The notes under the pieces: generated by a model
Seen by the model: the letters and a program-made list of their open reading frames with translations, nothing else
What the model was told of the DNA's origin: nothing
Database searches by the model: none
In this document: one piece after another, positions 9,201 through 52,700 of the stretch
How positions within the stretch are numbered: position 1 is the stretch's first letter
Layout: each line of letters begins with the position of its first letter
Origin: Podarcis melisellensis
Lineage: Eukaryota
Direction: 5' to 3' (one strand)
Assembly: GCA_964234715.1 (NCBI GenBank)
Contig: OZ174276.1
DNA: 64,000 nt
Made by a program: the position numbers and the translations under genes

Positions 9201-9967
9201 TGTCACGGCCACCCAGGTCTGGTCCCAGCTCACAAGAGACCTCACTCCGTTGCAGCTTATTTACAGGAAAAGTTTATTGAAGATTTCTGCTTCTCATACA
9301 GTTCAGCATTGTGGCCGTACGTCTGCCACGTTAGACCGCTGAAGTCCCCTCTGACTCCTCCCCTCTTCCGCACCAACTTAATAGCCTGGCTCTAGACCAC
9401 CTCTTCCTCTCCTTTCTTTTCCGCAGGGTCTTCCTGCCCCCCTGGGTTCCCTCTCTCCGTGACTCGCCTGAGGCTGAATCCTCTGCCGCCTCTTCCCCCC
9501 TCTTTCTGGCTTTAGGGCCGGGCTCCTCCCCTGAGCTCTCTCCACTTCCGCGCGCCTCTACGTTTGAACTTGGCGCGCGTACGTTGCTGCTGACCTTTCT
9601 TTCGACCGCTACACCACCCCCTGCTCTGCTCTCCACCCTTTCCGGCTGAACACCCTGCTCCAACCCCCTCTCTCTGTTCTCTCCTAATCCTGCTCCCTCC
9701 GAGAGGCTGACGACTCCACCCCCTTTACTCCGTTCCGGCTGAGACGTCTCTTGCTTCCTCTGTCTTCCACTGGGCTCCTCTCCGCTTCTCCCTTCTCCTC
9801 CCCTTTGCTTGATTAAGGTAACCCCCTTTTGAGAATCCTCTGACTCGCTGCTCAGACTCGTGGATTCCCTCAGAATTCCGTCATCTTCTTCCTCATCCTT
9901 CTGCCCCTCCTCCCACTCGCTCTCCGTCTCCTCTGTCATCTCCTCCTCTCTCCCAGAAACCCTGACA
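9201..9967 (-). repeat. 3' LTR
   Basis: Preceded on the - strand by a polypurine tract; AATAAA at 9278-9273. Confidence 0.97.
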
Positions 9968-12900
9968 TCCATCCCCCCCTCGAAGCCCCCCCTTCCCCCC
10001 TCCCGCTCGCCGGGGACCGGTTGTGGAAACTGCGGCTCTTCGGGGGTAGGCTCAGGATACAGGTCGTGTACGTCAATGTTCTCTGCTGGCAGTTCTGTGT
10101 AAGTGTATTCGAAGTCGGGTTCTTCCCCCAAATGCTTCTCAGTCTCTGCTTCCATCGCTACTTCCTCCGGTGCTGCCCGCCAAGGACCTATCAGCCACCT
10201 CTTACGCCATTCCTCCTCTGGCTGCTCCTCCCACCAATAAGGGGTTTCCGTGTCCACCCCCGAGCACGATCCCCTGGGCGGGCTTGATTCTGGTGTTCTT
10301 TCCTCGGGGGAAGAGAAACCCCTGAACGTGCTATCTGACAATGTGGGTGTGAAAAGCCAGTCATCAAAGTACTCAGCTGGCATGGGCCTATGTGGGAAAA
10401 GTGCATGGAACTCTTCTTTCAAAAGGGGTTCGTCTAACTCGTAGCCTGGCACCCAACTATTAGCAGCGGCTGGTGTGCCCTCCCTGGCGAGAAAATATTC
10501 AACTCCCTCCTCCCCCCATCTCGAGTCCAGTATCTCTGTGACCTCGTTAAGAGGTTCTGGTCTTGGCGATTCCCCCCTCTCAGGCGCCCTCCTACGTGGC
10601 TCTGGGGGTGCTCCTGACTCTTGAAACCTGTGTGGGGTTTTGTAGGGAGTGAGCACCGACCTATGAAAGACCGGGTGCACCCTGGAACCTTCCGGAAGGG
10701 CTATACGAAAAGCCACCGGATTGATCTTAGCCTCAACTTGATATGGCCCTAGCTGCCTGTGTCCTAACTTCTTCTTGGCCAATGACCTGGCCGGCATCGC
10801 GTGGGCTGCTAACCACACCCAGTCCCCAACCTGGATGTCCTCTCCCGCCCTCCTGTGCTTATCGGCCTGCACCTTATACGCCTGTTTTGCCAGCTCCAAA
10901 TGTCTCCGCAGCTCCTCGTGCACCTCTTGCAACTCCGCTGCAAACTGGTCGGCATCTTGAGGCCCCCCCCCTCCTGGTGCCGCAAATCTCGGGAAGGTTC
11001 TGGGATGACGGCCATTGTTCGCGAAGAAAGGCGTCACCCCGGTGGAAGCGTGTTTCGTGTTGTTGTAGGCGAATTCAGCCATCGGCAGATAGTCCACCCA
11101 CGCCGCAGGTCGCTGGTTGGCGTAGCACCGCAGGTACTGCTGCATGATCGCGTTGACCCTCTCCGCTTGACCGTTGGTTTGTGGATGCCTCGCCGATGTC
11201 AGGTTGATTTTGACGTGCAAGATGCCCAGAAGCTTTCGCCAGAAAGTGGAAACAAACTGGCGCCCCCTGTCGGACAAGACGGACTGCGGAAGTCCATGCA
11301 CTCTGAAGACGTGATCGATGAAGAGCTTTGCGGTCTGTTCTGCCGTCGCCACCTTGGCACAAGGGATGAAGTGCGCCATCTTGGTGAACAAGTCCACCAC
11401 CACTAACACCGCCGTCTTACCTCTGGAGCTGGGCAGGTCTGTAACAAAGTCCAACGCTACCCTCTCCCATGGTTGCTGCGGTGTCTCCAGCGGTTCTAGC
11501 AATCCCGCCTGCTTCTGGTGCACTGGTTTGGACCTCTGGCAGATATCACACCTGGCGACGTAGTCCGCCACCTCTCCTCTCATCTGGGGCCACCAAAAGT
11601 CTCTAGCCACCAACTCCATCGTCTTTTCTTTGCCGAAATGGCCTGCACTAGGGGCGTCATGCAACTGTTGCAGAACCTTGGCTCGAAGCTCGTCGGTGGG
11701 CACGTAAAGGGCACCCTTACGAGTCAAAAGTCCATCTTGTAATTGAAACTCATCGTTGTGTCGCGACCCTCCGCGTAGCTCCTCCATCTTAGACTGTGCA
11801 AACTGATCCCTTTGCAACGCGCGTCGCACCGCGTCCAGGTCGACTGCGATGGTAGCGCACGTCCACGCCTGCGGTGCGAAAATGTGCTTTGCTGCGATTG
11901 GAGCTGCTTCCTCCAAGTATTGCGGCTTTCGGGACAGCGCGTCTGCAATAACATTGGAGTCTCCTGGGATGTATTCTATTTTGAAGTCGAAGTCCGCAAA
12001 GAACTCCGCCCAGCGCATGTGTCGCTGGGTCTGCAACTTAGCCGTCCGCCAATACTCTAAGTTCTTGTGATCCGTGCGGACCTGCACCGTGTGCTTGGCT
12101 CCTATTAAGAAGTGTCGCCACGCTTTGAAAGCTGCATGAATGGCCAACAACTCCCTGTCCCATATGGTATAATTGCGCTCCGTCTTGCTGAGCTTCCGGG
12201 AGTAGAACGCACCCGGTCGCCAGTTGCCTTGTGAATCCTCTTGCAAAAGAACGGCCCCAACCGCTCTATCCGACGCATCGGTCTCTACCCGCATGGGTCT
12301 GCCGGGATTCACGTGGAGCAGCTGCTCTTCGGAGGCGAAAAGACCCTTAAGCGTCCGGAAGGACCGCTCCGCTTGTTCGGTCCAGACGAACTTCTTCTTC
12401 TTGGAACTGAGGGTGTCAGTGATCGCCGCCGTCGCGTTCGCAAAACCTTTAATAAACTTGCGGTAAAAATTGGCAAAGCCGATGAACCTCTGGACCTCTT
12501 TCCGATTTCGAGGGCTTTTCCAGTCCAACAGCGCTTGAACCTTAGCCCTGTCCATGGCCAGTCCCTCGTCGGACAACTTGTAGCCAAGGAAATCAACCTC
12601 TCTGACATCAAACTGGCATTTTTCCAACTTGGCGTACAGCCTGTGGTCCTTCAGCCTCTGCAGGACCTCCCTCACGTCCTTATCGTGATCCTCCGACGAT
12701 TCCGAGAAAATCAGGATATCGTCGAGAAAGCAGACACACTTCTTGTAGAGGAGACCTGCTAGCACGTGGTGCATAAATGCTTGAAAAACGTGGCTGCCAT
12801 TTTGGAGGCCGAAAGGCATGACTCTGTATTCGTATGTGCCCAGAGGGGTGAACATGGCGGTCTTCCACTCATCTCCTTTCCGGATGCGGATGAGATTGTA

Positions 12901-13851
12901 AGCTCCACGTAGGTCCAGCTTGGTGAAAATCTTGCCCCTCCTGACGGTCGCTAAAAGGTCGTCAATCTTGGGCATGGGGAAAGCTTTGGGCTTAGTCAAG
13001 CTGTTGATGAACCTGTAATCCACTATAAGCCTTTTTTGGGGCGTGTCCTTCTTCTTCACAAAGAAAACAGGGCTGCCTCCCGCTGCTTTAGATTCCCGGA
13101 TGAAACCTCGCTTGAGGTTATGGTCTATGAACTCCCGAAGCTCTTGCATTTCGTCTTCCGACATGGAGTACAGCTTGGCAGCAGGCAATTGCGCCCCTGG
13201 CACTAAATCAATCGCGCAGTCGTAAGGTCTATGAGGCGGCAACTTGTCAGCTTCCTTCTCACAGAAAACCTCCAAGAATTCCTGGTACTTGTGAGGCACT
13301 GTTTGCACCATACCCAGATGTAATGGCTGCTCAGCTTCTCCTCCCTGATCGGTCTGAAAGCAATGCTGAGCACAATACGATGAACAAAAGTTGATCTGCC
13401 TCTGGTACCACGCAACCGCGGGACTGTGCCTCTCCAGCCAACTCATGCCTAACACGATGGGTGTGTCCGATAAGTGGGTGACATTGAAACTAATAAGCTC
13501 TCGATGGTTGCCAATCTGCATCATCATGGGAGGGGTTTGCTGCACCACTTGCCCCCCCAGCAACTTCCTGCCGTCCACCGTGACCACGTTCAGAGGCGTC
13601 GTTGCAGGCAGGAGCGCCATGTTGTGCTGCTTAACGAACTGCAGTCCCATGAAGTCGGCGTTGCTTCCCGAATCGATCGTTATTGGAACCTCGAGGAGTC
13701 TCCCATCAGGCAACTGGAGTGTTGCTGTGAGCAGAACTGCCGGTTTGGGAGGCAAAGGGTCCACGCTCTGCAGTGATGCTGGGGGCTTGTCTACAGATCC
13801 GCCTGGCTGAGCCCCAGTAGCTCTGCTTCCAGCCAGGCACTGTCGTTTCCC
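9331..13851 (-). CDS. pol: Pol (protease, RT, RNase H, integrase, chromodomain, long C-terminal tail), entered by -1 frameshift
   Basis: IDSGS protease; KLDLRGAYN, MPFGL and FLDD in RT; VETDASD RNase H; HHCC, DDE and GPY/F in integrase; no stops until 9333-9331. Confidence 0.97.
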   Translation of the reverse strand, partial: GKRQCLAGSRATGAQPGGSVDKPPASLQSVDPLPPKPAVLLTATLQLPDGRLLEVPITIDSGSNADFMGLQFVKQHNMALLPATTPLNVVTVDGRKLLGGQVVQQTPPMMMQIGNHRELISFNVTHLSDTPIVLGMSWLERHSPAVAWYQRQINFCSSYCAQHCFQTDQGGEAEQPLHLGMVQTVPHKYQEFLEVFCEKEADKLPPHRPYDCAIDLVPGAQLPAAKLYSMSEDEMQELREFIDHNLKRGFIRESKAAGGSPVFFVKKKDTPQKRLIVDYRFINSLTKPKAFPMPKIDDLLATVRRGKIFTKLDLRGAYNLIRIRKGDEWKTAMFTPLGTYEYRVMPFGLQNGSHVFQAFMHHVLAGLLYKKCVCFLDDILIFSESSEDHDKDVREVLQRLKDHRLYAKLEKCQFDVREVDFLGYKLSDEGLAMDRAKVQALLDWKSPRNRKEVQRFIGFANFYRKFIKGFANATAAITDTLSSKKKKFVWTEQAERSFRTLKGLFASEEQLLHVNPGRPMRVETDASDRAVGAVLLQEDSQGNWRPGAFYSRKLSKTERNYTIWDRELLAIHAAFKAWRHFLIGAKHTVQVRTDHKNLEYWRTAKLQTQRHMRWAEFFADFDFKIEYIPGDSNVIADALSRKPQYLEEAAPIAAKHIFAPQAWTCATIAVDLDAVRRALQRDQFAQSKMEELRGGSRHNDEFQLQDGLLTRKGALYVPTDELRAKVLQQLHDAPSAGHFGKEKTMELVARDFWWPQMRGEVADYVARCDICQRSKPVHQKQAGLLEPLETPQQPWERVALDFVTDLPSSRGKTAVLVVVDLFTKMAHFIPCAKVATAEQTAKLFIDHVFRVHGLPQSVLSDRGRQFVSTFWRKLLGILHVKINLTSARHPQTNGQAERVNAIMQQYLRCYANQRPAAWVDYLPMAEFAYNNTKHASTGVTPFFANNGRHPRTFPRFAAPGGGGPQDADQFAAELQEVHEELRRHLELAKQAYKVQADKHRRAGEDIQVGDWVWLAAHAMPARSLAKKKLGHRQLGPYQVEAKINPVAFRIALPEGSRVHPVFHRSVLTPYKTPHRFQESGAPPEPRRRAPERGESPRPEPLNEVTEILDSRWGEEGVEYFLAREGTPAAANSWVPGYELDEPLLKEEFHALFPHRPMPAEYFDDWLFTPTLSDSTFRGFSSPEERTPESSPPRGSCSGVDTETPYWWEEQPEEEWRKRWLIGPWRAAPEEVAMEAETEKHLGEEPDFEYTYTELPAENIDVHDLYPEPTPEEPQFPQPVPGEREGGRGGFEGGMDVRVSGREEEMTEETESEWEEGQKDEEEDDGILRESTSLSSESEDSQKGVTLIKQRGGEGRSGEEPSGRQRKQETSQPERSKGGGVVSLSEGAGLGENRERGLEQGVQPERVESRAGGGVAVERKVSSNVRAPSSNVEARGSGESSGEEPGPKARKRGEEAAEDSASGESRREGTQGGRKTLRKRKERKRWSRARLLSWCGRGEESEGTSAV
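9968..10004 (-). promoter_or_regulatory. Polypurine tract
   Basis: The - strand reads ...GGGAGGGGGGAAGGGGGGGCTTCGAGGGGGGGATGGA directly before the 3' LTR. Confidence 0.9.
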
Positions 13852-14867
13852 TGAAGCTGCTCCCCTGGTTGCACCTCTGCTGTTACAGTTGCCAGCGCTG
13901 CAGTGTGCTTCTGGAGCCTCTGGGGGCACTCTTTCGCCATATGGTGCGCACTGTCACAGATGTAACACTTCCTGGTTCCTCTAGGAGGCTTCGCTTTGGC
14001 TGCACCAGGGACAGGGCTCTGGGATGGCTTCTGAGCCCTAGCACCACCAATCTCCATTGGCTCCTCTCTGTCCTTCCCCATTGGCGAGGGGTGCGCACGG
14101 CTGAAGTCCCTGTGCCCAAAAGGGAGAGTCCTTGCTTGCGCACGCGCTTGGGGCCCGTCCTCCTCATGCCACGGACGCCCCTCATGTCGAATTCCAAGAG
14201 CTAAAGCCCGTTGCACCACGTCTTCTAGGGTCTGGGGTCTGTCCCCCCTAGCGATCTCATCCTTGATGGGGGGGCTCAATCCCTCCCAAAAAAGATCTCT
14301 GACCAGTTTACTGTCCTTTGGCCAATCTAAGGCGGTGAGCAATGCAAAAAATTTAGAGTGGTATTGGCGCACAGTCGCTTTCCCCTGCCTCAGCCCGTGC
14401 ATTTGACGGCGCGCAATGTCCACATCCACAGAGGATTGAAAACAAGAATCCATCGCTTTGATGAACGCAGTTGAATCGCGACGGGCCGGTCCATCTTCGC
14501 GCCACAAATTGCGTAGCCAAGCCCTGGCCTCCCCATGCAGGTGCGAAACAATGAACCCCACTCTCTCCTCCTCATCTTTAAAATCGTGACGGAGTAAGTG
14601 CAGTGCATATACAACGTCCGCTCTGAAATTGGGATAGTCTTGCAAGTTGCCATTAAAATGCGGAACTAGGGCACCCCCCCTCCGTCCAAGCGCAATGCCC
14701 TCCGCTCTGGATCCTGGGGCCCCCGCCTTGTCCGCGCGCTCCCACCTTGCCTGCAAATCCTGGCACGTCTTCTCCAAGTCGTCATTCTTCGTCTGCGAAG
14801 CAATGACTGCCGATGTGAGAGCGGTAACCTGATTCCGCAATGCAACCAGCTGCTCCTCAGCGCTCAT
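13791..14867 (-). CDS. gag: Gag (358 aa: coiled coil, capsid, CCHC nucleocapsid)
   Basis: ATG at 14867 in GCAGCCATG context; LRQG..V.QY...F capsid motif, EPMEIG, zinc knuckle CYICDSAHHMAKEC. Confidence 0.95.
   Translation of the reverse strand: MSAEEQLVALRNQVTALTSAVIASQTKNDDLEKTCQDLQARWERADKAGAPGSRAEGIALGRRGGALVPHFNGNLQDYPNFRADVVYALHLLRHDFKDEEERVGFIVSHLHGEARAWLRNLWREDGPARRDSTAFIKAMDSCFQSSVDVDIARRQMHGLRQGKATVRQYHSKFFALLTALDWPKDSKLVRDLFWEGLSPPIKDEIARGDRPQTLEDVVQRALALGIRHEGRPWHEEDGPQARAQARTLPFGHRDFSRAHPSPMGKDREEPMEIGGARAQKPSQSPVPGAAKAKPPRGTRKCYICDSAHHMAKECPQRLQKHTAALATVTAEVQPGEQLQGNDSAWLEAELLGLSQADL
13801..13851 (-). promoter_or_regulatory. -1 ribosomal frameshift signal
   Basis: G GGA AAC at 13851-13845 in the gag/pol overlap, a 6-nt spacer, then the 9-bp stem GCCTGGCTG/CAGCCAGGC. 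Confidence 0.9.
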
Positions 14868-14914
14868 GGCTGCTCCCGTTCGTGAGCTTCGCAAAAAAAA
14901 ATTTTTGCTTTTTG

Positions 14915-14925
14915 AGAGGGGACTT
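14915..14925 (-). promoter_or_regulatory. Self-priming primer binding site
   Basis: AAGTCCCCTCT begins 2 nt after the 5' LTR and is the exact complement of LTR 15079-15069 (AGAGGGGACTT); no TGG tRNA-type PBS is present. Confidence 0.85.
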
Positions 14926-14927
14926 AC

Positions 14928-15694
14928 TGTCACGGCCACCCAGGTCTGGTCCCAGCTCACAAGAGACCTCACTCCGTTGCAGCTTATTTACAGGAAAAGT
15001 TTATTGAAGATTTCTGCTTCTCATACAGTTCAGCATTGTGGCCGTACGTCTGCCACGTTAGACCGCTGAAGTCCCCTCTGACTCCTCCCCTCTTCCGCAC
15101 CAACTTAATAGCCTGGCTCTAGACCACCTCTTCCTCTCCTTTCTTTTCCGCAGGGTCTTCCTGCCCCCCTGGGTTCCCTCTCTCCGTGACTCGCCTGAGG
15201 CTGAATCCTCTGCCGCCTCTTCCCCCCTCTTTCTGGCTTTAGGGCCGGGCTCCTCCCCTGAGCTCTCTCCACTTCCGCGCGCCTCTACGTTTGAACTTGG
15301 CGCGCGTACGTTGCTGCTGACCTTTCTTTCGACCGCTACACCACCCCCTGCTCTGCTCTCCACCCTTTCCGGCTGAACACCCTGCTCCAACCCCCTCTCT
15401 CTGTTCTCTCCTAATCCTGCTCCCTCCGAGAGGCTGACGACTCCACCCCCTTTACTCCGTTCCGGCTGAGACGTCTCTTGCTTCCTCTGTCTTCCACTGG
15501 GCTCCTCTCCGCTTCTCCCTTCTCCTCCCCTTTGCTTGATTAAGGTAACCCCCTTTTGAGAATCCTCTGACTCGCTGCTCAGACTCGTGGATTCCCTCAG
15601 AATTCCGTCATCTTCTTCCTCATCCTTCTGCCCCTCCTCCCACTCGCTCTCCGTCTCCTCTGTCATCTCCTCCTCTCTCCCAGAAACCCTGACA
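14928..15694 (-). repeat. 5' LTR
   Basis: No differences from 9201-9967 by eye. TATTAA at 15110-15105 and AATAAA at 15005-15000 on the - strand. Confidence 0.97.
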
Positions 15695-16522: not shown

Positions 16523-16747
16523 TAGTGGTACCTCAGGTTACATACGCTTCAGGTTACAGACTCCGTTAACCCAGAAATAGTACCTCGGGTTAAGAACTTT
16601 GCTTCAGGATGAGAACAGAAATCGTGCTCCGGCGGCGCGGCAGCAGCAGGAGGCCCCATTAGCTAAAGTGGTCTTCAGGTTAAGAACAGTTTCAGGTTAA
16701 GAACAGACCTCCAGAACGATTTAAGTACTTAACCCGAGGTACCACTG
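16523..16747. mobile_element. Tc1/mariner-superfamily MITE, family A
   Basis: TIR (c)agtggtacctc...gaggtaccactg, TA flank; second copy at 17532. Confidence 0.88.
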
Positions 16748-17531
16748 TACTTTCATGGACAGCTTCTTTCAAGCCTAATTTCAGCAGGTGGCAGGGAAAG
16801 GGAATGGGACACTGTGGGCATTAAGGGAGCACCCATTGTAAATTCATGGTTTAGGCTGACTAAACAGAATTTACTCTTTCACATTCTGTCTAGAATATTA
16901 GGTGAGGAATGTCAAGATTCTAAAGCTGCACTCCAGTAACAACCATAAAAAATTACCTAGCCTAAGCTTATACTGGTGAGGAAAAATCTAATGAACCCTT
17001 TCAAGTGGAAGCCCTCCACTAGGGCTTCCACTTTTGCAATGGGGCTTTCTTCCTGCGCCACCGATAACATCACATGGGGAGGGGAGGGAAATTGTTCTGT
17101 CCAGCAAGCTGATGTGCTTGTGCAAGGGGAACATGTAGCATAGCCCAGTGTTGAATTCCACCCCTTGTTAGTACCCATTTGATATTTCAAGATGTGTACC
17201 TATGCTAGTGGCAAGCAATTTCTTTAAAGAGTTTTCTTATTCTTATGGAGTATTTAGAACAGACCCAGAGCCTGAGAGGAAACATGACAAAAGCAGAATT
17301 CAAAACATTCCTTAGATGGAATTGCTCTTCCTTATTAAACTTCTGCCTTCCTCTTTTCTTTTCTTTTTGCCCTGAGGCTGACAGGTGATTTGAACTTCCA
17401 AGTATATTGTTGGATTTGTAACTATATAGCTGAAATCATTCTTGAAATGCCCAGGGTATTTTTCCTGTTAACTGTAGACGTTCTTGTCAGCACAATGATG
17501 CAACTTTAAATTGTGAAAACTGTGGCATATA

Positions 17532-17950
17532 CAGTGGTACCTCGGGTTACATACGCTTCAGGTTACAGACACTTCAAGTTGCAGACTCTGCTAACCCAGA
17601 AATAGTACCTCAGGTCAGTGGCGTAGTGGGGGGGGGTGCAGGGGGGCCGGCCACACCGGGCGCAACATCTGGGGGTTAGGGTTAGGGGGCGCAAATCCAC
17701 GGGTTAGGGGGCACAAATCCACGGGTTAGGGGGCACAAATTACTTGCCTTGCCCCGGGTTATGACAACCCACGCTACGCCACTGCCTCGGGCTAAGAACT
17801 TTGCTTCAGGAAGAGAACAGAAATCATGCTCCAGTGGCGCGGTGGCAGCGGGAGGCCCCATTAGCTAAAGTGGTGCTTCAGGTTAAGAACAGTTTCAGGT
17901 TAAGAACGGACCTCCGGAACGAATTAAATACTTGACCTGAGGTACCACTG
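17532..17950. mobile_element. Tc1/mariner-superfamily MITE, family A, interrupted by a nested hAT MITE
   Basis: TA-cagtggtacctc...gaggtaccactg-TA; colinear with 16523-16747 apart from the insert. Confidence 0.9.
17616..17784. mobile_element. Nested hAT-type MITE
   Basis: TIR cagtggcgtag/ctacgccactg; 8-bp TSD cctcaggt/cctcgggc (empty site cctcgggt). Confidence 0.88.
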
Positions 17951-19059
17951 TACAGTACATCCAAGAGCTCTACATCTGTTTGTGAGAAGGATGCAAGAGA
18001 TTGCGGGGGGTGGGGGGTGGAAAATGCACCTCTCAGTTGCATAACCCAATATTGTAGGCAACTGCCTTGAGGAGTCATGCTTTCATATGCCATATTAGGG
18101 GCTTTTCCTTTTGTTTGTTTCACTCAGAGGAGGGAGTGATATTGAAACCATCACTATGATTAAAAGTTGACAGCAGCAGAACAGCAGGAGGTGAGGGCCA
18201 TACAAGAGATGTAAACACAAGGTAGCCACACAGAGAGCCATTGTCCTGAACAATTTACAGTTTAAGAATGAGAGATTGTTAACGCCACGCACTCAAGCTT
18301 CCAACGGTTCTGTTGTGCAGCAAGGCAAACATTTATTCAGTACTACTGATCACTTACATCGCCTGAAAGCAGAATTCACACACACAAACCTTGTACGATT
18401 TGGCATTCATCCAAGGCATTAAATAACTCATTCTCTCCTCTTAACGGTCGCTTCCTCTCTTTCCCCTGAACAATCTGGGACACCTTCATTCCTCTGCTGT
18501 TTCCAAGCACATAAATATCCATAGAGCTTCAGGAATGGCCTTAGTGATTTGCTTTGTTTCGTTTCCCAAGATTAAAAAAAATAAAAGAAGCAAAGTTGCT
18601 CCCTCACACTGATTTAATCACCTTCTCCTAAACTCCATGCCAACTCCAGACTCCTGTTCCTGGTTTCCCTCCTTCTCCAGCAGTGAGGTAATGTCTCCAA
18701 GGTGACACTGGATTTGCATACTGAGTGCAGGCTTTCTGTGTTAAGTGTCCCAGAGTTGATAATATAGGTTTAGGGATAGAATAACTGTTGTGAGAAAACT
18801 GCAAGCAGGTTGCCCTACCATTAGTGAGGCAGCCATCTAAGGTTCTGAATGCCAGGGCAGGGTGAGGCGGGGAGAAGTAGCAAGGTGTCGAAGGACAGCA
18901 TTGTGTGTGCCAGGTGGCCTACCCTGTGCCCCCTAAACTAGCCTGCTGTCCTCAAGATGTGGCAAAGGACGTTGTCCAGTAGACAACGAAATAAGATTCA
19001 ACTTGGAATGGACGATGGGGGCAACTTGTCCTTCACCTCAGGCAACGAAGTACCTTAGT

Positions 19060-25969: not shown

Positions 25970-26320
25970 GGGATGCTGGTGGCGCTGTGGTCTAAACCAC
26001 TGAGCCTAGGGCTTGCCAATCAGAAGGTTGGCGGTTTGAATCCCCGCAATGGGGGTGAGCTCCCATTGTTCAGTCCCTGCTCCTGTCAACCTAGCAGTTC
26101 AAATGCATGTCAAGGTGCAAGTAGATAAATAGGTACCGCTCCGGCGGGAAGGTAAACAGCGTTTCCGTGCTCTGCTCTGGTTTGCCAAAAGCGGCTTAGT
26201 CATGCTGGCCACATGACCCGGAAGCTGTACGCCAGTTCCCTTGGCCAGTAAAGCGAGATGAGCACCGCAACCCCAGAGTCGTCTGCGACTGGACCTAACG
26301 GGCAGAGGTCCCTTTACCTA
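25970..26320 (+). mobile_element. Sauria SINE, full length
   Basis: tRNA-like head ggtggcgctgtggtctaaacc...ggtttgaatccc, core tagtcatgctggccacatgaccc, ACCTTT-type tail. Confidence 0.92.
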
Positions 26321-31500: not shown

Positions 31501-34500
31501 TTTTCTAAGTCAATAGGCTTAAGGGGAGGGTTACATAATTGGTCCAGACACCTTGTACATACATATAAATGATGTTTCTGTACACTCTGGCTTCCATCAC
31601 GGTGTTCTGTTGCACCAGAAGCAATTTAGTCATGCTGGCCACATGACCCAGAAAGATGTCTGTGGACAGACGCCGGCTCCCTAAACCTGAAGCAAAATGA
31701 GTGCCGTACCTCATAGTCACCTTTGCCTGGACTTAACCATCCAGGGGTTCTTTACCTTTACCTTTTTTACATATAGGGTAAAAGGTAAAGGTAAAGGCAC
31801 CCCTGAACATTAGGTCCAGTTGTGGCCGACTCTGGGGTTGCAGCACTCATCTCACTTTATTGGCCGAGGGAGCCAGCGTACAGCTTCCGGGTCATGTGGC
31901 CAGCATGACTAAGCCACTTCTGGTGAACCAGAGCAGCACACGGAAGCATTGTAAATTTAGTTAATCTCTTGTTTGTCATGAATTAGCTCTCTCCCTCTCT
32001 GATCTCTTGTTAAAACGAAAAATGCAACATGACTGCTAAATCTTCTGAGGATTATTGGTGTCTCCTCTGGCAGGAATTTAAGATTGATACATCTCTGAAG
32101 AAAACACAAGTATCCCCGCAGAACATAGCAATGAAGTTGAGAGCTGGCGAGGAAGCTACCTTTGACGTGGATGTGTTTGAGCCCAGTGAATCTCCTGTGG
32201 ACCTCTACATTCTCATGGACTTTTCCTATTCCATGCGTGATGACTTGGACAACCTTAAAACAATGGGCCAACAACTGGGTGAGAATTAAAAACTTATAAG
32301 CTGTGGGAAACAGCGGTCTGCAACGTCATAGTGCACTTGGCAAAAGACAGGGCTGGCCCTACCTTTAGGCTGAATGAGGCAACCATCTCAGGCAGCAGAT
32401 CCTGAGGAGTGGGGCATCCTTTCCCCTTTGTTGGAGGACAAAGGTGTGGGCATACAAGCTCTTTTGAACCCCCAAACTAGCCTGCTGCCCTCATGTGCAA
32501 TGGAAGTGTATTATGTAATTGGACTACATTGTGGGAAAGTACCGTATGTTTCAAGCAGAGGACTAAGGCTGCAATTCTAACCCCACTTACCTGGGAGCAA
32601 CCTCCATCTAATTCAACAGGATTTATTTCTGAGCAGACATGGTTAGGATTGCAGCTTTAATCTAGGTGTGCCAGGACATCTTCACTTACTTGCTCCTTTC
32701 CCACTTTCTTCCTGCCAGCAAATTTTTTGACTCAGCTAACCAGTGATTATACTATTGGCTTTGGCAAGTTTGTGGATAAAGTTTCAGCCCCACAGACAGA
32801 TATGAGGCCTGAGAGGTAAGTGAAGGTGATGCACCCAGAGGATACATTTGTGAATTAACTATTTAGGATCCATAGGATCCTAAATATATTGTGAATAAAC
32901 TATTTAGGATCTTCTTCGTTGTTTTTAGTGGGTGGGTGTGAAAGCTTTAAAGTGAATAAGCCTTGTAGCTTAAGCTAGCCTGTTTCTAATACCTATGACT
33001 ATGCCCCTTCTCCAAACCGTGCTGTCTTACTTCATCATATCCATGCATGACTGAATCTTGTGTATGTCAGTTGACTGACTCCTGATTAATATCTGTTTTT
33101 AATATGTGTTAATTAATTTTTAAACTTCTTTTGCAAAACAGTTGTGCACCCCAAATATAAATGGGGGGATTACATTTATATCCCATCTTTCCTCCAAAAC
33201 GAAGGAAAACAGTCTTTCTGCATCTGATGAAATCAACTTATGCCTAAGAACATTTTGGTCACAACTCATTTGTTAATCTTTATTTTGTTTTTGGTTTTTT
33301 TTTTGCTGTTTCAGATCACAACACATGACTGTTCTTCTATAATTAATTTTATTAAACTGTATGGCAGATGACTGAGGTCTTTCCCTATAAGATACAGAGG
33401 AGGTGTTTCTGATATCAACTTGCTGGTCGTTGATTATAAAGCCTTTGCTGTTCTTTTTACATTCAGACTCCGTGAGCCTTGGACTGGTGCTGACCCACCC
33501 TTCTCCTTTAAGAATGTCATCCGCCTAACCCATGATATCAATAAATTCAGCCAAGAGTTAATGATGGAGCAAATATCAGGGAACTTGGATGCCCCAGAAG
33601 GTGGATTTGATGCCATATTACAAACAGCTGTTTGCAAGGTGAGCCAAGAGGTCGCTGAAGAAGGCATAGATAGATAAAGCAATTAACTGAGTGTAAGATG
33701 GATATCGGCCTTCTTAGCGCCTCATCAAACTGTGAGATCAATGAGAATATTTAGGCCAAAGCTTTGCTTTAATTATCAGCACATGGTAAAGCTTGTGTCT
33801 TGCTAGAACCTGGTTGAGTTTTAGAATGGACTAGCTGTTATCAAGCCATAGCTGGAGTTACAACATTACAATTTAAATAAACTCCAAAATTTGTAGTTCA
33901 GCTGGAGCTTTATTGGGACCCACAACAGTGTGGCGGGTTCTCTAGAACTTTTCATCAAGCAGGCAGTGAGAGATGAGTGAGGAAAAATGAAAAACCAAAA
34001 CTTATAAAAATTAGACTGATGAAGTAGCCATGAGGTCAGCTTGTAGACTCTTTTTCCAGGATAGAGAATGCAGACTGAATAAGTCCCTCCCAGGTGTAAC
34101 AGATATCAGGTTATACACCTGGGATTCTGGGTGTATTTTATGTTTAATTTTCTGGAAATGTTTTGAAGATATAATTTAAAAAATGGTTAATTATTGCTTA
34201 ACAATGATAATTATTAAATAATTGTTAATAATTGTTATTAAATAATAATTACAATTGAATTGTTACTTTAGTGTAAATGGTGTTTTAATTATGTACTATG
34301 GTTATTGTTTTTCAACAGCTATTGTGTTGTAACCCACTTTAGGTACAAACTTGTGAGAAATGTGTTGTATGCATAAGGATGGAGATAATGGTTTGATTAG
34401 CAGCTGAAAGACATATGAAGGTTAAAAATAAATAAATACCAAAAGTGCCTTAGAATGGAAGCAGAAAACATGGTGAATTCAGGGAGCTATACCTTGTCAA

Positions 34501-40500: not shown

Positions 40501-43500
40501 GTGGAGAGTGTGTTTGCAATGCAGGCTGGTAAATACCTCATCCTTATTTTTTATTAAGTGGGGTGTGTGTTTTCTGTTTCCTTCAGCAGAAAATATCAGT
40601 TGGTTGGTTGGTTGGTTGGTTGGTTGGTTGGTTGGTTGATTGATTGATTTGTACCCTGCCCTTCCTCCAATCTGGAACACAGTGCAGCTTTGAATAACAA
40701 GCATAAGGACAACTGTATAAAATAAAACACAAAAACATCAGATATCAATAAAATGCAGCAGTGTAGCAGCAATATATAAATAAGAAATCTGTGGGACCAG
40801 CAACCTAACCCAAACAATTCATCCTCCAAACTACTGGACAATAAACTACTGGTTTATTGTTGTTTTATAAATCTTGGTTAATGGTAACCATGGTTCAATG
40901 TTATGTTCCAAATCAACTACAAATAGGAGGCAGGAAATTTTTAGACTCAAATATATGTTGGACTCATGCTGTCTGCTTTTCTCTAAGCCACACGTTCACC
41001 TCTCAATAGTCACTTCATGGCAAAGAAAGGTTGAGCTGTGACCAATTATTATCATTTCTTTGCACCATGCCTTCTAAGCAAGATGTCAGACCTTTGAGGC
41101 CTTTCTCAGTCTTTGTCTTGACTTCCTTTCTCCTTGACAGGCGAGGGGCTACGTGTAACTGCTCTACCACCTCCTCTACTGACGATGCGGCCTGCATACG
41201 ACCAGGGGATACAGAGCCCTGCTCAGGGCAAGGTGAATGCCTCTGTGGGCAGTGCGAGTGCTATTCTGAGGGTCGGACCCAGCGTTTTGAGGGCCGCTTT
41301 TGTGAATTTGACAATTTGCAGTGTCCCCGCAGTTCCGGATTCCTCTGCAACGGTGAGTGAGGCCTTCTGGAGCAGTGACCAGGCTTCAGGTCTGCCCTCA
41401 GGTGGTTACAACTTTCTGCTGCAGGCTAAGGCTACACACCTGAATCCATTTACTTGAGAGTAAGCTCCCTTGAATCTGATAGGTCTTAGCAGGCACAATT
41501 AGCATTGCACCATAAACTGTCGTTCTCAGATGCTTGTGAAATCACACAACTAGATCATAGATTATAGAGGATTCACTATTGTGTTAATGACTGAATAGAA
41601 GAGCCTCCCCAAACCTATTGCCCCAGTTATAAATTTTATAGTGTTTGAGTTTTTCTGCAGGCTATCACACCTTCCTCATATTCTTTGCCTTTGAATCCCC
41701 CTAGGCTTGTGCAGCTAATGCCAAGAAAAGCCTTTAGTGGTTGGTCATAGATCTGTCATCTTCTCTTTGAAAGCCTCTAGAGGGCATCAGTTACACTCTC
41801 AAGTGAAGGGAAAACAAAAGGTGTTTTCGTGATCCATTTCCGTACAGATTAGCCAAGTGACAGAGTGGGCAAAATACTGTGTTTTAAACAGATTCCCTGC
41901 ATTCACTGTGTCAGGCTGCAGCCAGGGTCAGGTTGATGTTGACCTGAGCATTATTGGTTTCCTAAAAACTATGTCTGCATGCCAAGTACTCTGAAGTTAA
42001 GTCCCAAGTATGTGTGGTTAGGTCAGGAGGACTGTAGTGTGAATAGAAACATACTATGGATTATCTGGTTCACCTTTCCCTTTCCAGTACTTGGCCTTTC
42101 TTATTGCAGCAAACAAGACCATGTTGTTGTCTTTGTGCATCAACCTTTATAAAATGTTGGAGGCATACTTAATGAATCCATCAAGTAGAAAACACAGTAG
42201 CTTAACATTCCCCAATTCTTTGTCTTGATTATAGTCATTTAAAGCTTCTGAATGGCTTGCACTTCTACCACATTTGGATAAAGACACCATTAAATGCTTC
42301 ACGACACAGATTTTCTCTACGCCTGTTGTATATACATCTTCCATGGCCTTGTTGTATAGCTGTTTTCCAACAGTACTCACTTAATGACTGACCCAAAATT
42401 GTGATCCTTCGATAGATAAAAATGTTAGGACTTCCCTCCTTAATTTCACATTACTGTACTGTACAGACCTTTATTTGACGTCAACATTTGTTTCTACCTT
42501 ATAACGCTCCTGCAGCCACAGCGTGAAATGGTGTTGTATTTATTGCAATACATTTTATCGTTTTCATTTCATTCATAATTTTTAAAAGCACAAAATATCT
42601 AAGATACAAAAAACAACAACACAACAACAAACCCCCAAAAGCTCCCGACATAACTATGGGCATTGTGGCACTTTGCCAAAGATGTGAATCTTGAGCTATG
42701 GCATATAAGCCATGTAAGTGTAGGCTGAGTTCTATGAAACCCTATCCTTTCCTCTGTGCAGATCGGGGGCGCTGCTACATGGGTCAGTGTGCATGTGAAA
42801 GTGGTTGGGAAGGCCCTGGCTGTGAGTGTCCCACAAGCAATGAGACCTGCATCTCCAGCAGTGGGGTAAGTTATTCCCCCCTGCCCTTCTTAGAAAGATA
42901 AACAAGGGAGATAGGAAGCTGTATTCCTTCATGTACAACAGCCTGAAGATCAGAGAGAGTTCTGTTTAAATAGATGGCTGGTGACTTCAAAGTTGATGTA
43001 GCTGGCCTCATGCTTTGCATTGGGATGTTCCCAAATTCAAGTCCTCACTTCTCCAGGCTCTCAGGAAAGTTCTTTCTGAGACCCTGGGCAAGGTGTTGCC
43101 AGTCAGAGTACACAATAATGGACTTGAGCTGGTAGACTGATTAATGGATTTAAGGCATCTTCAGAGATGGGGTAGGTAAAGGTAAAGGGTAAAGGGACCC
43201 CTGACCATTAGGTCCAGTCATGGCCGACTCTGGGGTTGCGGCGCTCATCTTGCTTTATTGGCCGAGGGAGCCGGCATATAGCTACCGGGTCATGTGGCCA
43301 GCATGACTAAGCCGCTTCTGGCGAACCAGAGCAGAGCACGGAAACGCCGTTTACCTTCCCGCCGGAGCGGTACCTATTTATCTACTTGCACTTTGACGTG
43401 CTTTCAAATTGCTTAGTTGGCAGGAGCTGGGACCCAGCAACGGGAGCTCACCCTGTCGCGGGGATTCGAACTGCCAACCTTCTGATCGGCAAGTCCTAGG

Positions 43501-49709: not shown

Positions 49710-52700
49710 GCAGTGTGTGTGTTTAAAAAAGTATCTCAGTACACCAAATGTTTAGTTTCTGGCATATATAATATGCGTAAAGGTAAAGATAAAGGGACCC
49801 CTGACCATTAGGTCCAGTCGCGGACGACTCTGGGGTTGCGGCGCTCATCTTGCTTTATTGGCTGAGGGAGCCAGCATACAGCTTCTGGGTCATGTGGCCA
49901 GCATGACTAAGCTGCTTCTGGCGAACCAGAGCAGCGCACGGAAACGCCATTTACCTTCCTGCTGGAGCGGTACCTATTTATCTACTTGCACTCTGACGTG
50001 CTTTTGAACTGCTAGGTTGGCAGGAGCAGGGACCGAGCAACGGGAGCTCACCCCATTGCGGAGATTTGAACTGCCAACCTTCTGATTGGCAAGCCCTAGG
50101 CTCGGTGGTTTAACCCACAGCGCCACCCGCGTCCTATAATATGGGTACATGCTAAAAATGTAAGATGTGAATCAAACAAAAGGCATGGAAACAAGGACCA
50201 TTGTTGTGTGAGCATAGAGACCCACAGGTCAAAAGAGAGCAGGTGTTTGGCAGCAGTACACAATAATACAGCCTGCTGCCAGCAACCTGAATTCCATTTA
50301 CCCAACTAGAAGCGGCTCTCATCTAGAAAAAAATCCTGTGGAAACCTTGCTTAGGTAGGTAACGTTTCTGCATTTGAAGTGAGGTCCTCTTATTCCACTT
50401 ACTCTTGTCCTTGGGAAAGATGTAAAGCTTGAACAGGGCCGTTGGCGTTTCTATGTTCTAACTCCTCTTCTTTCTCCAAAGGCCGCACTGTTGGTTTCAA
50501 GGAGGACCACTACCTGCTCAGAAAAAGCCTCATGACCTCGGACCACCTAGACACTCCCATGGTTCGCAGCGGCAACCTGAAAGGCAGAGACACAGTTCAC
50601 TGGAAGATCAACAACAATGTGCATAAGGAAGGCTTCTCTTCCTTAGCTCTCAATCCCAAGGACCTGAGTAAGTGCCAGTTTTGCAAGGTGGAGAAGGGGC
50701 TAACTGGAGCCAAAGATGGTGGGGGGAAAGTGGTCCCTCGGTCCTCTCAGAATCTGATCCTAAGCTGATTCTAACATGCACATTCCTCTCACATGAATGC
50801 ATGTGGGAAATTACTTCTTAGAACACTTCCCCATGTTGTAATCTCTCTCCAGTTAAGTAAGTTGTCTGTGTAGCTTGAAACCTTATCCCTGAGGGCTTGA
50901 AACCTCTTCCCTGCTAGCTTTCCACTTGAAATGGGATTTGACACTGGAGCTTCTTCAAACAAGGGGCATTCCCTCACCCCTGGCTTTCTTTCTGAGATGA
51001 TACAGCCAGACAAGAGAACAGTATCATCATGAGCAACTGTGCTGATAATTTATCTGTTAAGAGATCCCTAGGTCTCTCACGCAACTACAGTTGACTGATG
51101 GGAAGGAAACAGGATCACTATTAAATCAGATTATGTGTGTTTGACAGACATGTCCTAAATCAGATTCTAGCCTTTGATTTCAAAATTCAGCTAACCATAA
51201 TAAAATGGCTCTACTGCTTCTGCCCAACCACCCACATTGCTACATCTCATGTCTCCATATGCATGCTATTTGCTGGTAGTGTTTCTTGCTGATTGATTTG
51301 TTTCCTTGAATCCAGTTCCATATGGAGTGTCTCTGAGACTCGCCCGGCTCTTCACCCAAAACCTTGCAAAACCAGATAGCCGTGAGCATGAGCAACTGCA
51401 AAAGGATGTGGAGGAGAATGTAAGGAGCAGGAATAATGCTGCCTACTGGGTTTGCGACTGAGGAATGGGTGGGCAGGGGGGAATACAATCAAGCCGATGC
51501 AAGCTTCCTTTTCTTGGATTTGAGTTAAGAGACAGCATATGGTTGTTGTCTGCTCAACATAAGGAAATCAAGTGGGATTAACTAAACCCCTTAATCTGAA
51601 CATTGGGATGAACACCAGGAAATCTGAGTTAGTGAAACTCTCTCTTGCTCTTCACAGCTCAATGAGGTTTACAGGATTATCCCTGGTGCCCACAAATTTC
51701 AGCAGACAAAATTCAGGTGAGTTACTTTGGGAGGGGGCAACTGGCATGTAGAGAAGCAGTGAGATCTCTTCCAGTGGGTGCTCCTTTTAAAGATGAGAAT
51801 GGGTAAAAAATGGCTGAACGTCTGGTGTGATTAAGTCTAGGGGGCATCCTTGGAAGAATATAGAGAATATAAAGTAGTAGGATTAGAACTCTTGTCCCAA
51901 CAGCTTTCCCCAGGTCAGAGTGTGTATGAAGCTTGAAAGGCCAAACCAAAAAATCTATGTATTTCTCCTTGGATTGTAATTAAAATTATGCATATTGTCT
52001 GTTTACTCTCCAGGCTGCAGCCAAATGCTGGGAAAAGGTAAGGAATTCATTTCTTGCTTTCCATCTAGGTGTAGACGTGTGGATACTTTCCATTGCTGTG
52101 CTTATTCTGTGGGAGTTTTCACTCACTACTCAGAAACTGCGATGTCTTCTTACAACTGTATCATTAGCATCGTTGCTCTCTGCACTGCAGAGATCATCAT
52201 CTTCTTCGCCAGTTAACTTCTCACTGTTTGTGGGATGGAAAGTAGATCGATGTTAGCCCTTCCTAAGCAGAACTAAGAGGTGCATTCAAACTGCCCCTGC
52301 TGCGTGAGCAGAAATGGTCATTCTATCACCCCTTCCCATGCCCTCAGAGTTTTTGATTTGATGTCATGTTTGTATCTCAACAACAATGCTGAACTCAAAG
52401 CAGCTCACAATTTGTCTACCATGTTTCTCTGTGACGAACGCTGTAGCAGAGGAAGTGGATTCACTTATGCCAGGGAACTGTGACTGGCCAATAGTTTTTG
52501 CAGACCTGTGTTACCCCTTTAGTGTGGCAGCAGTGTTTATTCTATGGATATGCTGCAAGCACTCCCTATTTGAGTGGTGTGAAGTAGCCTTCATCTGGCC
52601 CCATTGCTGTGGAAAGAGTCTTCACACTGGCACCTGTTCCAGATCAGTGGCTGAAAATCATTGTGCATAAAAGTATGTGAGCAGTGACTTTATATTGCTA

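Follow-up and report, generated by a model that had tools for sequence, protein, structure and literature searches.

The stretch of DNA analysed here (the window) comprises 64,000 nucleotides of contig OZ174276.1 of Podarcis melisellensis (assembly GCA_964234715.1) and contains a complete LTR retrotransposon at 9201-15694 on the minus strand, 6494 nt long and flanked by a 5-bp target-site duplication. Both LTRs measure 767 nt, have TG...CA ends and show 0 mismatches to each other (9201-9967 versus 14928-15694). The element is an intact Tf1/sushi-type (V-clade-like) chromovirus: the order protease, reverse transcriptase, RNase H and integrase between the LTRs, together with the target duplication, is that of the Ty3/gypsy chromoviruses, and its primer site is complementary to its own 5′ end over 11 nt, self-priming being described as typical of the Tf1/sushi group (PMC4600332, PMC6317226). 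Anolis and Rhineura proteins group with it (support 0.96) in a tree made without named Amn-ichi or Sushi-ichi sequences. The family is very young and abundant, the same 1540-codon frame being present in 130 of the best-scored 150 copies. Its homologues that bear a name are Podarcis proteins. Further interspersed repeats with 84-92% identity were seen in the window at 16583-16750, 17785-17953, 26052-26319, 31777-31945, 43175-43484 and 49775-50084. The features of the element are the following:

14928..15694, minus strand: 5′ LTR, 767 nt, same sequence as the 3′ LTR
14915..14925, minus strand: primer site behind the 5′ LTR, covarying with the paired LTR segment across subfamilies
13791..14867, minus strand: gag (capsid, zinc knuckle), overlapping pol
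13851-13845, minus strand: candidate −1 slippery heptamer in the gag/pol overlap, site of a putative frameshift
9331..13953, minus strand: pol (protease, reverse transcriptase, RNase H, integrase, SH3, chromodomain, 352-aa tail)
10390..10548, minus strand: degenerate chromodomain with Asn, Arg and Thr at the three aromatic-cage positions
9968..10389, minus strand: pre-LTR acidic/aromatic tail, 141 codons, dN/dS 0.37-0.59
10315..10380, minus strand: TIM-like motif and candidate site for LEDGF/HRP2, in which Phe closes a short putative helix and a Ser/Thr linker of 8 residues leads to FxGF
9968..9980, minus strand: polypurine tract, forming codons of the pol frame
9201..9967, minus strand: 3′ LTR, with the pol stop at 9333-9331 and AATAAA at 9278-9273
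9334..9966, minus strand: LTR-coded tail, 211 codons, acidic/Ser-rich then basic, dN/dS 0.18-0.30
9373..9435, minus strand: stretch rich in Arg and Lys, with LLxW, which distant sister families also have, candidate nuclear localization signal (NLS) or nucleosome/DNA contact
9342..9352, minus strand: start site (9352) and 11-nt self-primer as copied in the 3′ LTR, also coding (self-priming pair)

Between 13953 and 9331, pol has an uninterrupted frame of 1540 codons from stop to stop, and the tail beyond the chromodomain comprises 352 codons. The earlier note had claimed that pol runs through the polypurine tract and the entire U3 of the 3′ LTR, with about 140 residues before the LTR and about 211 codons inside it; the frame is indeed open to 9331, all peptides quoted there are present, and the count gives 141 and 211. 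A 54%-identical protein of another Podarcis record terminates at the same place, and the remaining two sense frames of the LTR contain 9 and 11 stops. Such an open frame might be a by-product of purine-rich promoter DNA, conserved for its DNA elements only; U3 is 73% G+A, and the last codons overlap the TATA-like box and the self-primer. Shuffling left the U3 frame open in 14 cases out of 5000 by dinucleotide, in 2 out of 5000 by mononucleotide and in 4 out of 3000 by block, and the whole tail in none (0/5000, 0/5000 and 0/3000, respectively), so composition fails to explain the open tail.

Further evidence on this point comes from related copies. Forty diverged copies were chosen for spread from 150 matches listed for a query that consisted of residues 1-245 of the tail of a relative, and the frame was open through U3 in 24 of them and broken in 16. 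Pairwise dN/dS, calculated from 18 sequences in which integrase and tail are both open, was 0.18-0.30 for U3 in each of 12 subfamily pairs (bootstrapping of four pairs gave upper bounds of 0.37-0.50) and 0.19-0.41 for the distal U3, which lies outside the search query. The corresponding values were mostly 0.05-0.15 for integrase and 0.37-0.59 for the pre-LTR tail, while the shifted sense frames of U3 gave 0.85-1.62 in six pairs. By codon position, U3 variation was distributed 109/115/193, a third-position excess. Maximum likelihood estimates of omega were 0.35 for U3 (12 copies) and 0.48 for the pre-LTR tail, and freeing omega instead of fixing it at 1 improved the likelihood by 2dL 88, a value that the treatment of kappa may affect.

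For the counting of indels, 44 of the 46 copies were aligned as DNA, including broken ones. Of the indels common to at least two copies, five of the six in the coding tail, with the polypurine tract set aside, were in frame, the exception being a G-run slip, as opposed to none of four after the stop; single-copy U3 indels were in frame in one of nine cases. The U3 indels of the window lineage itself (+10, +9, +1, −20) were omitted because the middle part aligns poorly. As judged from these comparisons of sequences, purifying selection has acted on the U3 frame between subfamilies. The shuffles, the third-position excess, the frame specificity of dN/dS and the in-frame inherited indels argue together against a purine-rich by-product, an explanation that is largely refuted and that we hold to be very improbable. 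They are also the comparisons proposed in the earlier note (openness of the frame in relatives, indels in multiples of three, dN/dS below 1, shuffled sequences). The outcomes listed there as speaking against it, namely intact relatives mostly stopping right after the chromodomain, frame-random U3 indels and shuffled U3 sequences often open over 200 or more codons, did not occur among close relatives.

No match to the 352-codon tail was found in Pfam, PDB sequences or the ESM Atlas, and a profile search returned only ten close relatives of it. An AlphaFold model of the chromodomain plus tail had a mean pLDDT of 43.5, and the tail is likely to be mostly disordered and of low complexity. This agrees with the first of two forms suggested earlier, a roughly 350-aa disordered integrase extension; in the second form, a cleaved accessory protein, a separate protein with its own start is unlikely, since the Met inside U3 is not conserved among the open-tail copies compared.

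The boundary of U3 could be placed by means of self-priming. Eleven nucleotides at 9352-9342 are complementary to the primer site behind the 5′ LTR; of 54 elements whose two LTRs could be aligned, 45 have a pair of at least 9 nt, and its two sides change together between subfamilies. According to this pair, the start site is 9352, the TATA-like box (TATTAA, 9383, position −31, only loosely kept in other subfamilies) being 31 nt ahead of it, and the pol stop falls at +20, as the earlier note had predicted with an end about 20 nt beyond the start of transcription. With a start at 9352, the pol frame covers the entire U3 and the self-primer, and the same sequence works as coding region, as promoter and as self-primer. 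The dual promoter and coding constraint proposed for U3 is borne out by dN/dS, indels and the start-site pair alike.

Young copies add to this picture. Among 20 young copies with shortened frames, four carry U3 deletions ending exactly at 9341, and one further U3 deletion ends at 9352. Three of the four share an identical junction, which occurs on two or more SNP backgrounds. Position 9341 was considered as start site and dropped, as the self-priming pair gives 9352 and 9341 is the first base past the 11-nt primer; it matches the self-primer cleavage of Tf1, which we take to occur after base 11. Recurrent U3 deletions that end past the self-primer or at the start were observed in both LTRs (L113, L115, L122, L124, L125). 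They may represent the genomic record of mis-transferred strong-stop DNA in a self-priming element. Contigs of four sequencing runs contain the 9341/9612 junction, contigs being silent on expression; a search across sequencing runs listed no RNA run as containing the sequence. A tail lesion is present in 10 of the 20 broken young copies; errors of reverse transcription that follow packaging should produce lesions of this kind, which are no proof of dispensability unless the copies multiply, a point examined for the three identical deletions.

The chromodomain preceding the tail gives weak matches (Pfam E 0.056, CBX3 E 0.0016) and aligns with the canonical domain of a sister family. Three aromatic cage residues, whose role in chromodomains is discussed in PMC3059260, characterize type I chromodomains; the window element has Asn, Arg and Thr instead. 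The cage comprises 0/3 residues in the window family, 1/3 in a sister lineage (family B) and 3/3 in another (family C). The degenerate domain is still conserved, with dN/dS mostly 0.04-0.12.

The most specific feature of the tail, overlooked in the earlier note, is the FxGF motif at 10380-10315, upstream of the LTR and outside U3. A TIM (TND-interacting motif) consists of a helix with a hydrophobic residue, a linker and FxGF, and FxGF is described as marking the partners of LEDGF and HRP2 (PMC9987994) and as present in all known ones (PMC9987994, PMC11740969). Of 46 copies of the window family, 44 retain FxGF, and a Phe of the preceding segment is conserved. The 25-residue block that holds FxGF shows 6 amino-acid versus 16 silent variants, which is near the chromodomain level. 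The linker has 8 residues and is Ser/Thr-rich, within the range known for TIMs (8-16 residues, acidic or Ser/Thr-rich). With one Asp it is not Glu/Asp-rich, so the window motif would need phosphorylation; linkers of relatives have 7-10 residues and are Glu/Asp-rich. The helix before FxGF comes solely from a model of low confidence (pLDDT about 45). The pattern Phe-(7-16)-FxGF arose in 37 of 20,000 tail shuffles, an optimistic value because the pattern was picked after viewing the sequence. A complex prediction of the lacertid LEDGF IBD with a 37-aa motif peptide scored 0.01 and 0.00, but it was run without alignments on a peptide outside the tested range of the tool and counts neither way. For the U3-coded part, a role can be named less specifically than for the motif. 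Its LLxW stretch is common to distant relatives, a conservation that may act at the DNA level since the stretch overlaps the TATA-like box at 9383.

Related integrases mostly end shortly past the chromodomain (median 12 aa, 104 proteins). Tails of at least 100 aa occur in 14 of the 104, ten of which are from squamates, and the squamate long-tail proteins form one clade (support 0.96). In family B, pol enters a 408-nt LTR by 100 codons and carries two FxGF motifs with Glu/Asp linkers, both at 5/5 loci (L071-L075); in one of these copies (L073) no AATAAA was found by eye in the LTR. One or two FxGF motifs are also present in each of five further diverged proteins, which the profile search returned. 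The FxGF lineage is the lineage with chromodomain cage loss, whereas the cage is intact in the lineage without FxGF.

That lineage includes the lacertid family C, whose frame extends about 117 codons into the LTR at 10/10 loci. An RRSAR core is found in its LTR-coded tail at 24/30 loci, against 27 of 20,000 shuffles, a pattern likewise picked after viewing the sequences. Anolis proteins also carry RRSAR; their LTR overlap is a probable one, as only the proteins were seen. The core is absent from the tail of the window element, which has a different Arg-rich end. At 20 further family C loci, the tail was full in ten and lost by a slip in the polypurine G-run in five, four of which have LTRs more than 99.7% alike. 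Gag and pol of this family apparently form one frame of about 1575-1625 codons (L076-L085, L091-L110). The frame ends just before a TATA-like box, and R-U5 has a variable tandem repeat. One copy sits in telomere-type repeats (L095:6833-7772 and 25-960).

Chromosomal distribution was compared in lists of top-scored copies, which are not random samples. In these, 8 of 135 chromosomal copies of the window family lie near chromosome ends; in a very young sister subfamily with a 1542-aa frame (e.g., L052, L053, L054, L066), 30 of 57 lie within 1.5 Mb of the ends. Small scaffolds hold 27 of 90 copies of that subfamily versus 6 of 150 of the window family, again among top-scored copies. FxGF alone does not set target sites, as both groups share the motif and differ in placement. 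Among the listed copies of an older subfamily, 35 of 59 are on one 39-Mb contig (C19), many as near-identical pairs (L031, L033, L035, L036). As a guess, this contig could represent a W chromosome that carries large duplications.

These observations can be combined into a mechanism that we consider probable on balance, the tail being a disordered integrase arm for LEDGF/HRP2 docking and for nuclear import or nucleosome contact. Gag-Pol would be made by a −1 frameshift, and translation of pol would continue for 352 codons after the chromodomain, crossing the polypurine tract and the whole of U3. The tail would stay on the mature integrase as a docking arm, its first part binding the TND/IBD of the H3K36me3 readers LEDGF or HRP2 by means of a host-type helix, linker and FxGF, probably tuned by phosphorylation. 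This docking would take over from a chromodomain lacking the methyl-lysine cage and may influence target sites, and the basic LTR-coded end would supply nuclear import or nucleosome/DNA contact. LEDGF is the protein that HIV uses to find genes. Points that speak against this mechanism are the Ser/Thr-rich linker, the differing placement of two young subfamilies that both have the motif, the position of FxGF outside U3, the overlap of LLxW with the TATA-like box, and the copies damaged in the tail (16 of 40 diverged ones, 10 of 20 broken young ones, 5 of 20 in family C).

The tail may instead be functional solely in nuclear import, solubility or particle assembly, with FxGF coincidental or binding something else and no host tether. 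Basic clusters close all long tails, most of the tail evolves fast, and subfamilies sharing FxGF differ in placement, all of which would fit. However, families whose tails are otherwise little alike have helix-Phe, linker and FxGF in the same succession, and the motif is doubled in one family and coincides with cage loss, so that we rate such a purely auxiliary tail as rather unlikely. The element protease might also cut off the tail as an accessory protein, e.g., a decoy for TND proteins or an enhancer of transcription. The region is long, disordered and of low complexity, and retroviruses do have LTR-coded accessory proteins. This seems improbable to us, given the missing conserved start codon, the FxGF motif lying within 4 residues of the chromodomain in two families, and the CRM and Ty1 tails, which are described as acting as parts of the integrase.

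More tentatively, the docking arm may be one case of a wider pattern in which the LTR and adjoining DNA of squamate chromoviruses have become a platform on which short linear motifs imitate the chromatin tethers of the host. The cage-less lineage would have gained an LEDGF/HRP2 FxGF motif and the cage-intact lineage a U3-coded HMGN-like anchor, and differences between tails would explain the placement of sister subfamilies. For the question of how LTR retrotransposons of vertebrates get to chromatin and select their sites, this young, high-copy family offers named, short and testable motifs. Family B, with two textbook FxGF motifs, is the best subject for a binding test, and the 1542-aa subfamily and the window family form a natural contrast for targeting. 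If FxGF binds LEDGF/HRP2, it is a mobile-element mimic of a cellular TIM, of which we found no report; our literature search, which did not extend to the repeat libraries Repbase and Dfam, returned none on this tail or on FxGF motifs on a retrotransposon.

Among known elements, the V-clade (Sushi-ichi, and Amn-ichi of Anolis), as described, shares with the window element the Ty3/gypsy domain order, chromodomain and self-priming (PMC6317226, PMC2774666) and has the same TGTYA...TNACA ends (PMC3601003). Unlike these relatives, the window element has a 352-aa tail across all of U3 and a cage-less chromodomain. The earlier note had held U3-coded proteins to be known mainly from retroviruses, which does not stand: in plant CRM group A and some Beta chromoviruses the polyprotein runs on into the 3′ LTR, and this LTR in CRM group A codes for a targeting (CR) motif (PMC3059260, PMC3605345). 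An open reading frame running into the 3′ LTR is common to CRM group A and the window element, and the read-through layout is a variant of this known arrangement. In the CRM elements, as described, the CR motif replaces the chromodomain and the primer is tRNA-Met, whereas the window element keeps its chromodomain and, in place of a tRNA-Met primer site, has a self-priming site; it is therefore not a CRM. It also belongs to a dispersed family of a lizard host, CRM being described as centromeric and from plants, and its LTR-coded tail probably arose independently. The use of U3 as codons, promoter and self-primer parallels the plant case, and the many subfamilies allow the trade-off to be measured.

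Regarding the motifs, the RRSAR(LSA) core of HMGN and Dsup is described as binding the nucleosome acidic patch (PMC12487698), and RRSARL/I in the tails of family C and of the Anolis proteins is a candidate anchor of this kind. The integrase tail of Ty1, a copia element whose partner is AC40, has a short targeting domain within a bipartite NLS (PMC7459421); what that source says of the domain does not place it in the LTR, and the likeness lies in a host-binding motif and NLS in an integrase tail. The TIM/IBM of MLL1, JPO2, IWS1 and MED1, with a helix with Phe, an acidic or Ser/Thr linker of 8-16 residues and FxGF as described, resembles the window motif. Known TIMs are on host proteins; here a TIM-like motif is found on a retrotransposon integrase as a putative binder. 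Lentiviruses also use LEDGF (PMC9987994), and HIV integrase is reported to bind the same domain via a structured site and not via an FxGF motif (PMC10854676). If the platform reading is true, squamate chromoviruses have converged on a lentiviral host factor by a different mode of binding.
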